From a virus (Duplodnaviria; Caudoviricetes), in IMG/VR virus record IMGVR_UViG_3300037458_001303, positions 1-64,000 of that record: 64,000 nt of DNA; one strand, written 5' to 3'. Below, piece after piece: positions 30,598-31,166 of this stretch. Under the pieces are notes generated by a model, which worked only from the letters and a program-made list of their open reading frames with translations, was not told the DNA's origin and ran no database searches. How positions within the stretch are numbered: position 1 is the first letter of the stretch; each line of letters begins with the position of its first letter. Both the position numbers and the translations under genes were made by a program.

Positions 30598-30869
30598 GTC
30601 GTCGGTGGGAGCGGAAACGCATGCCGTTCCTGGGCGAAAGCCCGAATTGCGGTGGCGCTAAGCTGGCATTAGTCGGCTTGTCATCGAAGGATCCCGAGGG
30701 ACCCTTGCTGTAGTGAGAGCGTAGCGGCAGTTTGCTGTCGTGAACATAATCCGGCGCAGCCGTGTGCTGCACCTTAGCGTTGGCCAAGTGGCTGGCGTAG
30801 GACAGAGATCGCTCTGGCTTCAGCGAGCCGCCCTGTAAGCGGATCCATCGCGCGTGCGCGAAGTGCGGG
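30598..30869 (+). ncRNA. omega-RNA/tracr-like scaffold candidate
   Basis: Non-coding and dense in hairpins (GCG-GAAA-CGC, GGGC-GAAA-GCCC, AAGGATCCCGAGGGACCCTT, GCAGC-CGTGT-GCTGC, long-range CGCTAAG/CTTAGCG). Ends in 20 nt identical to repeat positions 12-31. Confidence 0.6.
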
Positions 30870-31166
30870 GACAAGAAAGAGGCTCGGTGCATTGCCAACG
30901 TCGCATCTCGCGCGCGTGCGCGAAGTGCGGCGCGAGCAACTTGTGCAGTTCCTCGGGGTCGCATCTCGCGCGCGTGCGCGAAGTGCGGCGGGCGTCGGAT
31001 GAAGGTCGCATCTCGCGCGCGTGCGCGAAGTGCGGCACGAAGGGAGTGAAGCATGAGTAGTGAAAACGAAGTCGCATCTCGCGCGCGTGCGCGAAGTGCG
31101 GCTCGAGACGATCGCGCACTACACCGCGGCGCAAGTCGCATCTCGCGCGCGTGCGCGAAGTGCGGC
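30849..31166 (+). CRISPR. Mini CRISPR-like array: 5 identical 32-nt repeats plus 1 truncated repeat, 5 unique spacers
   Basis: Repeat GTCGCATCTCGCGCGCGTGCGCGAAGTGCGGC at 30900, 30958, 31005, 31071 and 31135; partial copy at 30849-30868. Spacers are 30, 26, 15, 34 and 32 nt. Confidence 0.9.

Follow-up and report, generated by a model that had tools for sequence, protein, structure and literature searches.

The window analyzed here, 64,000 nucleotides of DNA, is the first 64 kb of an IMG/VR virus record of 72,993 bp (∼73 kb) that is complete according to CheckV. The locus of interest carries, all on the + strand, the gene for a TnpB-family effector of 493 residues (P0001; 29116–30597), ∼250 nt 3′ of this gene with no credible open reading frame (ORF), a damaged repeat copy ("unit 0"; 30838–30869), 30 unique nucleotides ("spacer 0," or S0; 30870–30899), and a mini-array of five perfect, self-folding 32-nt repeats (30900–31166, with repeats at 30900, 30958, 31005, 31071, and 31135).

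The effector gene, its relatives, and the array

P0001 scores 144 bits (6e-42) against the NCBIfam model guided_TnpB, for which the cut-off is 100, and contains a Cas12f1-like TNB domain in Pfam. For an AlphaFold model with 21 relatives as input (pLDDT 86.7), the top PDB matches are the ISDra2 and ISFba1 TnpB proteins, followed by Cas12p, Cas12f, Cas12m, Fanzor2, and LaTranC. By these measures, P0001 has the TnpB fold, which is marked by a split RuvC domain, a zinc finger, and a WED/REC core. The RuvC-I aspartate (D265), the RuvC-III aspartate (D479), and the zinc finger can all be assigned. Where LaTranC and TnpB have their catalytic glutamate, the canonical one of RuvC-II, P0001 has glycine (G381; 30256–30258), and this glycine is invariant in the alignment columns of the P0001 family. 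Likewise invariant in the family is a glutamate, E443 (30442–30444), located seven residues N-terminal to the zinc finger. Replacement of the RuvC-II Glu by Gly together with a compensating Glu has been described as a conserved, probably active rearrangement of RuvC, with one such branch being virus-specific (Altae-Tran et al., 2023; PMC10691335). From its aligned residues, P0001 appears to be of this rearranged RuvC-II type, and by analogy its nuclease center is probably active via the relocated glutamate.

There is one copy of TnpB in the phage, and no Cas1, Y1 transposase (Y1 TnpA), or serine recombinase was found among the phage proteins. As a single-copy gene with no transposase or recombinase, P0001 appears not to lie in a mobile IS200/605 or IS607 element; judged by gene content, the locus would be immobile and devoid of an adaptation module.

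The protein is rare. A search of 1.8 billion representatives returned a sole close relative, P0003, at 46% identity, as well as ∼44 proteins with E < 1e-30 at 30%–40% identity. Back-translated pattern searches of IMG/VR, with a single protein and then with a two-protein alignment, gave nothing close to P0001, and the same type of search in metagenome contigs gave one distant fragment. The P0003 locus (L001) is laid out as in the window, with the gene, a ∼320-nt scaffold, and seven 36-nt repeats separated by spacers of 0–42 nt. Arrays are also present at L011, L033, L038, L215, and L216, with scaffolds of 230–400 nt, and at L032, L034, L036, and L037, where they start from the gene end and the proteins have long C-terminal tails. 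The order effector, scaffold, repeat-like or repeat-complementary tail, and array is thus common to L001, L011, L033, L038, L215, and L216 (30%–46% protein identity), and the repeats of all relatives share a related end motif, most of them being self-folding. The C-terminal tails are ∼100 residues long (L032, 4720–5830; L034, 2760–3000; L036, 4180–4334; L037, 4230–4366); because the arrays at these four loci begin at or inside the gene end, any scaffold there must overlap the coding sequence, as in TnpB and Cas12n.

The mini-array of the window, as defined by repeat comparison, folding, and an RNA contig described below, has spacers of 26, 15, 34, and 32 nt, plus flank. Spacer lengths are highly irregular in the window (30932–31134), in L001 (7877–8300), and in L038 (∼16–34 nt; 4385–4740), which, together with the absence of Cas1, suggests that the arrays grow and shrink by recombination or duplication rather than by ruler-guided acquisition. 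Exact 20-mers of S0, S1, and S3 have no match in IMG/VR. The first 20 nt of spacer 4 (31103–31122) match exactly a stretch of the major head protein gene (phrog_10, 1.7e-51) in another IMG/VR contig (L217, 3574–3593), with the last 12 nt unmatched; at an estimated ∼0.1 such matches per 20-mer, with four tried, the match is within chance, and we treat it as a lead to a rival-phage target, not as a finding. Spacer 3 (31037–31070) resembles a ribosome-binding site with a start codon, and its final 8 nt are identical to the stretch just past the start codon of the post-array gene (ORF 31180–31527; 31167–31202). In a contig from a wetland DNA run, position 30899 is fused to 31135, with four repeat-spacer units omitted; this joint most likely reflects collapse of the repeats during k-mer assembly, or it may represent a one-repeat variant.

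A structured RNA between effector gene and array

Over the interval 28500–32000, no Rfam family matches at E ≤ 1, and a promoter and terminator scan of the locus gave nothing useful; the single-sequence fold of the scaffold is only modestly better than those of shuffled sequences (z = −2.0). The first element of the RNA is a 6-bp hairpin at the effector stop (30588–30603), with the stop codon in its GUAA loop, which is seen in the folds and begins at an adapter junction (30587/30588) but is not conserved in L001. It is followed by a 5′ module of three hairpins: hairpin A (30607–30631), with an 8-bp stem (30607–30614 with 30624–30631) and a 9-nt loop containing GAAA; hairpin B (30632–30643), with a 4-bp stem and a GAAA loop; and hairpin C (30650–30686), in which two stacked helices (30650–30657 with 30679–30686 and 30661–30667 with 30672–30678) surround a conserved internal loop. 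Beyond the module, a 3′ domain (30689–30846) is predicted, at the window locus by minimum free energy (MFE) folding only, in which a composite closing helix (30689–30721 with 30810–30846) encloses hairpins at 30724–30741, 30752–30769, and 30777–30798.

To the 5′ module we fitted a covariance model (CM R1), built from the window and L001, which finds L033 with 38 bits (E = 2e-8) in a match that overlaps the end of the L033 gene. Across the three loci, standard pairs fill 87 of 87 cells, and 17 of the 29 pairs are changed on both sides; none of 500 shuffles is as good, and slid alignments are 35%–51% paired. Hairpin C contributes 15 pairs, 10 of them changed on both sides, with every cell paired in the window, L001, and L033, and it is predicted by every MFE fold; hairpin A is 100% paired, with one compensatory pair; and the place of hairpin B is taken by different hairpins in L001 and L033. 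With an alignment that is fitted to the model and comprises two to three sequences only, the covariation support for the 5′ module is good but not overwhelming. CM R1 gave no match in L214–L216, L011, or L038; the module can be recognized at three loci alone (the window, L001, and L033). A search of IMG/VR and GTDB genomes with a 16-nt motif conserved in the scaffold gave 175 loci, none of which encodes a relative; these were discarded as chance matches.

The alignment of the window with L001 is unreliable over the 3′ domain. In six relatives, the closing helix is 87% paired, with 4 of 9 pairs compensatory, compared with 20%–61% paired when slid, in a MAFFT alignment that was not fitted to the structure; locus by locus these statistics are mostly not significant, and the multi-locus count alone is informative. 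This helix joins a motif ∼125–150 nt upstream to the beginning of a repeat-like unit, which is itself located ∼50 nt ahead of repeat 1.

These data bear out part of an original prediction for this stretch, which had proposed an omega-RNA-like scaffold running into a truncated repeat and then a 30-nt spacer: the repeat copy, the 30 nt, and the hairpin at 30632–30643 hold, and a long-range pairing is not supported. A covariance model of homologous loci had been proposed as a check on the stems, and the local stems do covary. Two relatives retain the hairpin at 30632–30643 although its sequence there is completely different. The other GAAA hairpin had been placed at 30611–30620; the letters for its 3-bp stem are present, but covariation favors the longer hairpin 30607–30631, with GAAA in the loop. 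The 7-mers CGCTAAG (30658–30664) and CTTAGCG (30774–30780), between which the long-range pairing had been drawn, exist, but the 5′ partner lies inside the covarying hairpin C, and the pairing is used by no MFE fold; by our own estimate, a complement of 7–8 bp within ∼300 GC-rich nucleotides is roughly what chance provides.

Thirteen wetland metatranscriptome runs hold 22%–32% of the words sampled from 30300–31300. Three RNA runs and one DNA run were compared, as contigs, over 29000–31700. The RNA runs provide contigs across the scaffold (30587–30935, 30559–30876, and 30545–30883; total extent 30545–30935), and one run provides an extra, low-depth piece within the array (30957–31033). A transcript across 30600–30870, the lack of which would have counted against the original prediction, is therefore present. 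The contigs begin 10–50 nt before the effector stop codon and traverse the scaffold, such that, as for omega RNAs, a structured RNA extends over the 3′ end of the gene, with a candidate guide on its 3′ side. Neither the ORF nor the downstream genes have any RNA depth, and both are covered by the contig from the DNA run; because the RNA is confined to the scaffold while the DNA run spans the genes, DNA contamination does not account for it. An Illumina adapter abuts position 30587 in one run, such that a fragment ends at 30588; with this base the stop-codon hairpin begins, and it is the likely 5′ end of the RNA. There is thus a stable RNA of ∼320–350 nt that comprises the scaffold, the repeat copy, and at least 7–14 nt beyond, with some molecules reaching into repeat 1. 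In the wetland metatranscriptomes, the scaffold RNA accumulates far above the mRNA and is the dominant transcript of the locus. It should be noted that the contigs show neither strand nor exact ends and that the runs may stem from one sampling campaign; we infer the + strand from the + strand matches of the covariance model, in which G-U pairs covary, and from the way in which the adapter is oriented.

The damaged repeat copy and the 30 nt behind it

As had been predicted, the 20 nt at 30849–30868 are identical to repeat positions 12–31 (20/20), and a stretch of exactly 30 nt, unique in the phage, separates unit 0 from repeat 1. Aligned without gaps to the 32-nt repeat, the whole of unit 0 (30838–30869) matches at 25 of 32 positions, with every mismatch confined to the first 11 nt or the final nucleotide. 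Unit 0 is thus less a truncated repeat than a repeat copy of which the 5′ third is ruined. The full repeat forms a hairpin of its own (−21.3 kcal/mol), its outer stem being made up of its 5′ and 3′ ends; because the first 11 nt of unit 0 have diverged, its own 5′ arm is destroyed, and its 3′ arm is left unpaired.

In hybridization-energy calculations, unit 0 is complementary to repeat positions 1–22 (−35.6 kcal/mol; shuffled sequences give −25.9 ± 4.6, and 10 of 300 do as well), and the hetero-dimer of unit 0 and repeat is 8.6 kcal/mol better than the separate folds. In the MFE folds, unit 0 pairs in cis with repeat 1 over 12 + 6 bp. The original prediction had found no separate anti-repeat; none within 30598–30848 indeed beats shuffled controls, but the complementarity of unit 0 itself to the first 22 nt of the full repeats had been missed. 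This signal needs to be read with care: the repeat is a GC-rich near-palindrome, such that any fragment of it will be complementary to it, and the anti-repeat signal in the window is in part automatic. Moreover, it is the 5′ part of the repeat that is paired, rather than the guide-proximal part, and the hairpin formed by the repeat itself is a competitor.

When the 55 nt before repeat 1 are compared with the repeat of the same locus, shuffles at least as good number 0 of 300 in L011, 10 of 300 in the window, and 11 of 300 in L216, where 0 of 98 upstream windows are better and the repeat is not palindromic; complementarity is weaker in L215, L033, and L001, and L038 gives no signal. The complementary piece lies 0–9 nt from repeat 1 in L011, L001, L033, and L216, and because it abuts repeat 1, the transcript there can fold into a stem-loop that leaves spacer 1 at the guide position. 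In the window, the complementary piece is unit 0, and the 30 nt form the loop between it and repeat 1.

The 30 nt of S0 could be either a guide in cis or a linker or loop between unit 0 and repeat 1, and uniqueness, target searches, and the RNA contigs bear on the choice. Two of the RNA contigs stop 7–14 nt inside S0, and one passes through. Target searches gave no match in the phage itself, none for the first 20 nt in IMG/VR, and chance-level matches only in GenBank phages. In the relatives, the corresponding "first spacer" stretch is 6–34 nt long and is complementary to the repeat in several (L001, L216, and L033), which argues that it is not generally a guide. The 3′ end of the array-proximal unit in the relatives resembles the 3′ end of the repeat of its own locus, a match that fits a putative shared guide-proximal handle. 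A comparison of L033 with L215 shows somewhat stronger conservation of the array-proximal unit than of the repeats. In L215, an 11-nt copy of an internal part of that locus's repeat lies within the 21 nt (1874–1894) that separate the array-proximal unit from repeat 1.

Interpretation and relation to known systems

We consider it likely that the stretch is the guide-RNA scaffold gene of a phage-borne, TnpB-derived CRISPR-like system and that it descends from a transposon omega/right-end RNA. The effector would bind the scaffold, as TnpB binds omega RNA, and the freed 3′ arm of unit 0 would act as a docking element that joins the scaffold to guides by one or both of two modes. In the cis mode, the handle, placed directly before the 30 nt, would make a one-piece guide; in the anti-repeat mode, acting in trans or in cis with repeat 1, the 3′ arm would pair with the first 22 nt of the full repeats, and one scaffold would serve all guides of the array. 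The resulting ribonucleoprotein may target rival-phage DNA. Unit 0 itself would be a secondary product of recombination or homogenization between scaffold tail and repeat rather than the seed of the array: since relatives at 30%–46% identity have arrays, the array is much older than the phage of the window, and the 20/20 identity points to a presumably recent secondary event, such as repeat-to-scaffold recombination or homogenization. For the half-repeat/tracrRNA fusion of RpoE-linked TnpBs, an event of this type has been proposed (Altae-Tran et al., 2023; PMC10691335).

The two modes may be shared out in different ways. A strict natural single guide, in which scaffold, handle, and 30 nt form a complete omega-RNA-like guide and the array guides act alone or with the scaffold in trans, is a serious possibility that nevertheless falls short of probable. 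The RNA contigs are continuous from scaffold to handle and on into the 30 nt, one of them reaching repeat 1; the handle is intact in unit 0; the 30 nt occur once in the phage, have the length of an ordinary spacer, and show no complementarity to the repeat; and the array-proximal units of relatives end as their own repeats do. Yet the equivalent stretch ranges from 6 to 34 nt in relatives and pairs with the repeat in L001, L216, and L033, searches of the phage, IMG/VR (first 20 nt), and GenBank phages found no target for the 30 nt, two of the three contigs end 7–14 nt inside them, and unit 0 is devoid of the stem that every full repeat forms. Alternatively, the RNA could be a pure tracrRNA, with unit 0 serving solely as an anti-repeat for the full repeats and the 30 nt as a linker or loop with no guide role, a reading that is just as serious a possibility and likewise falls short of probable. 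Complementarity that follows automatically from a palindromic repeat, that is limited to repeat positions 1–22, that has to compete with repeat self-hairpins and repeat-repeat dimers, and that brings little or no gain in L033, L215, and L038 tells against it, whereas the family-wide tendency toward pairing between the repeat and the 55 nt that precede repeat 1, clearest in L011 and in L216 with its non-palindromic repeat, the MFE pairing of unit 0 with repeat 1 in cis (12 + 6 bp), and the ruined 5′ arm of unit 0, which frees the 3′ arm, are what it would lead one to expect. That one RNA works in both modes, as a hard-wired guide for the 30 nt and as a trans helper for the array guides, is possible, if on the unlikely side.

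Two further readings deny unit 0 such a role or give it another history. Ordinary decay, with unit 0 as a dying first repeat of no function and the RNA as a stable structured 3′ UTR or array leader, would account for the diverged first 11 nt, the irregular spacer lengths, and the drift of arrays that have no Cas1-Cas2; we think it improbable, given that a repeat-like or complementary element occurs at the same place, ∼50 nt past the closing helix, in six relatives, that 20/20 identity in the handle half is then unexpected, and that the scaffold covaries and is far more abundant than mRNA in the RNA libraries. The original prediction had instead suggested that the locus captures how an array arises from an omega RNA. 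On such a reading, the repeats would have been duplicated from the omega-RNA 3′ end only recently, within this phage. From position 12 onward, the repeat is identical to the scaffold end, and irregular spacers and an absent Cas1 fit growth by duplication, a general route proposed previously (PMC10691335), but related repeat ends are found in the arrays of relatives down to 30% identity, such that the array predates the lineage, and the array-proximal unit differs from its own repeats in L001, L033, and L215. Arrays already present in relatives at 30%–46% identity make such a snapshot very unlikely; what stands of the original interpretation is a structured, conserved RNA continuous with a repeat-derived element, as seen in the contigs (30545–30935) and in the 5′ covariation.

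Among known systems, those termed TranC, reportedly described by Jin et al. in Cell in 2025, are said to be transposon-CRISPR intermediates. TranC systems have TnpB-derived effectors, omega-derived helper RNAs, and Cas1-less arrays (bioRxiv 10.64898/2026.03.27.714800; PMC13565253; PDB: 9jfo/9jfq). Systems of the TranC/type V-U kind are also marked by a guide divided between a tracrRNA and a crRNA, which are held together by an anti-repeat, and by use of both CRISPR RNA and one-piece right-end RNA. The window locus resembles TranC systems in having a compact TnpB-like effector beside a short array with no adaptation genes and in the helper RNA of presumed omega/right-end descent between gene and array, and some TranC members likewise occur in phages. 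LaTranC, a TranC member, is the best PDB sequence match of P0001, but the match is confined to the C-terminal 155 residues (E = 1e-10), and P0001 therefore probably does not belong to the same clade. The window locus also differs in having Gly in place of the RuvC-II Glu, together with another invariant Glu, in its self-folding repeats, and in having no extended anti-repeat beyond the unit 0 fused to the scaffold.

TnpB with its omega RNA (ISDra2 and ISFba1; PDB: 8h1j, 8exa, and 8iaz) provides the best fold matches and a similar RNA, which starts within the 3′ end of the gene, extends downstream, and has its guide position at the 3′ side. Unlike these, the window locus is single-copy and has no transposase, the N-terminal helical lobe of P0001 is larger, and an array follows the scaffold. 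In RpoE-associated TnpBs, fusion of a half-repeat with a tracrRNA re-creates an omega RNA, and the same study treats the type V-U groups and proposes omega-RNA segments as the origin of arrays (Altae-Tran et al., 2023; PMC10691335). What the window shares with that fusion is a scaffold that is joined to a 3′ half-repeat and that terminates where the repeat does; there, however, the array is lost and the nuclease dead, whereas the window keeps five full repeats and a catalytic set that looks rearranged. Type V-F (Cas12f) and other tracrRNA-dependent type V systems are similar in their small effector, in the tracrRNA between gene and array, and in structure, as judged by the matches to the P0001 model. 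The repeats of Cas12f, however, pair with a clear anti-repeat, whereas those of the window self-fold and have unit 0 as their sole complement. The tracr-L of type II-A systems, said to have been described by Workman et al. in 2021 as a natural single guide, is reportedly a fused helper-plus-guide RNA that coexists with an array, belongs to a Cas9 system, and has a regulatory target in its own promoter. The window likewise combines a natural fusion of helper and candidate guide with a neighboring array, but S0 has no self target. Canonical adaptive type V systems have uniform spacers acquired via Cas1-Cas2; the spacers of the window are 15–34 nt long, and Cas1 is absent.

The locus is, then, of the already known TranC/type V-U kind and fits the recently described transposon-to-CRISPR transition, of which it is an environmentally expressed example, rather than a new kind of system. 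New are the lineage, which is distinct and rare and has an apparently rearranged RuvC-II, the fusion of the scaffold with a damaged repeat copy beside a persisting array, and the direct RNA evidence from the environment. If the tracrRNA mode alone works, the locus would be another member of an already described class. If both modes work, the splitting of guide RNAs need not be all-or-none, and a compact 493-residue effector with a defined scaffold would become available for testing; the locus would then be a living one in which the unsplit and the split states of the "functional RNA splitting" model coexist, and it would belong to a TnpB lineage that is carried by a virus, has an apparently rearranged RuvC-II, and is expressed in nature. 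A relative at 30% identity on a 219-kb viral contig (L009) has no array, and its downstream region (4400–4760) contains, by eye, the same complementary motif pair as the closing helix of the family; this locus may represent a one-piece omega-RNA form.
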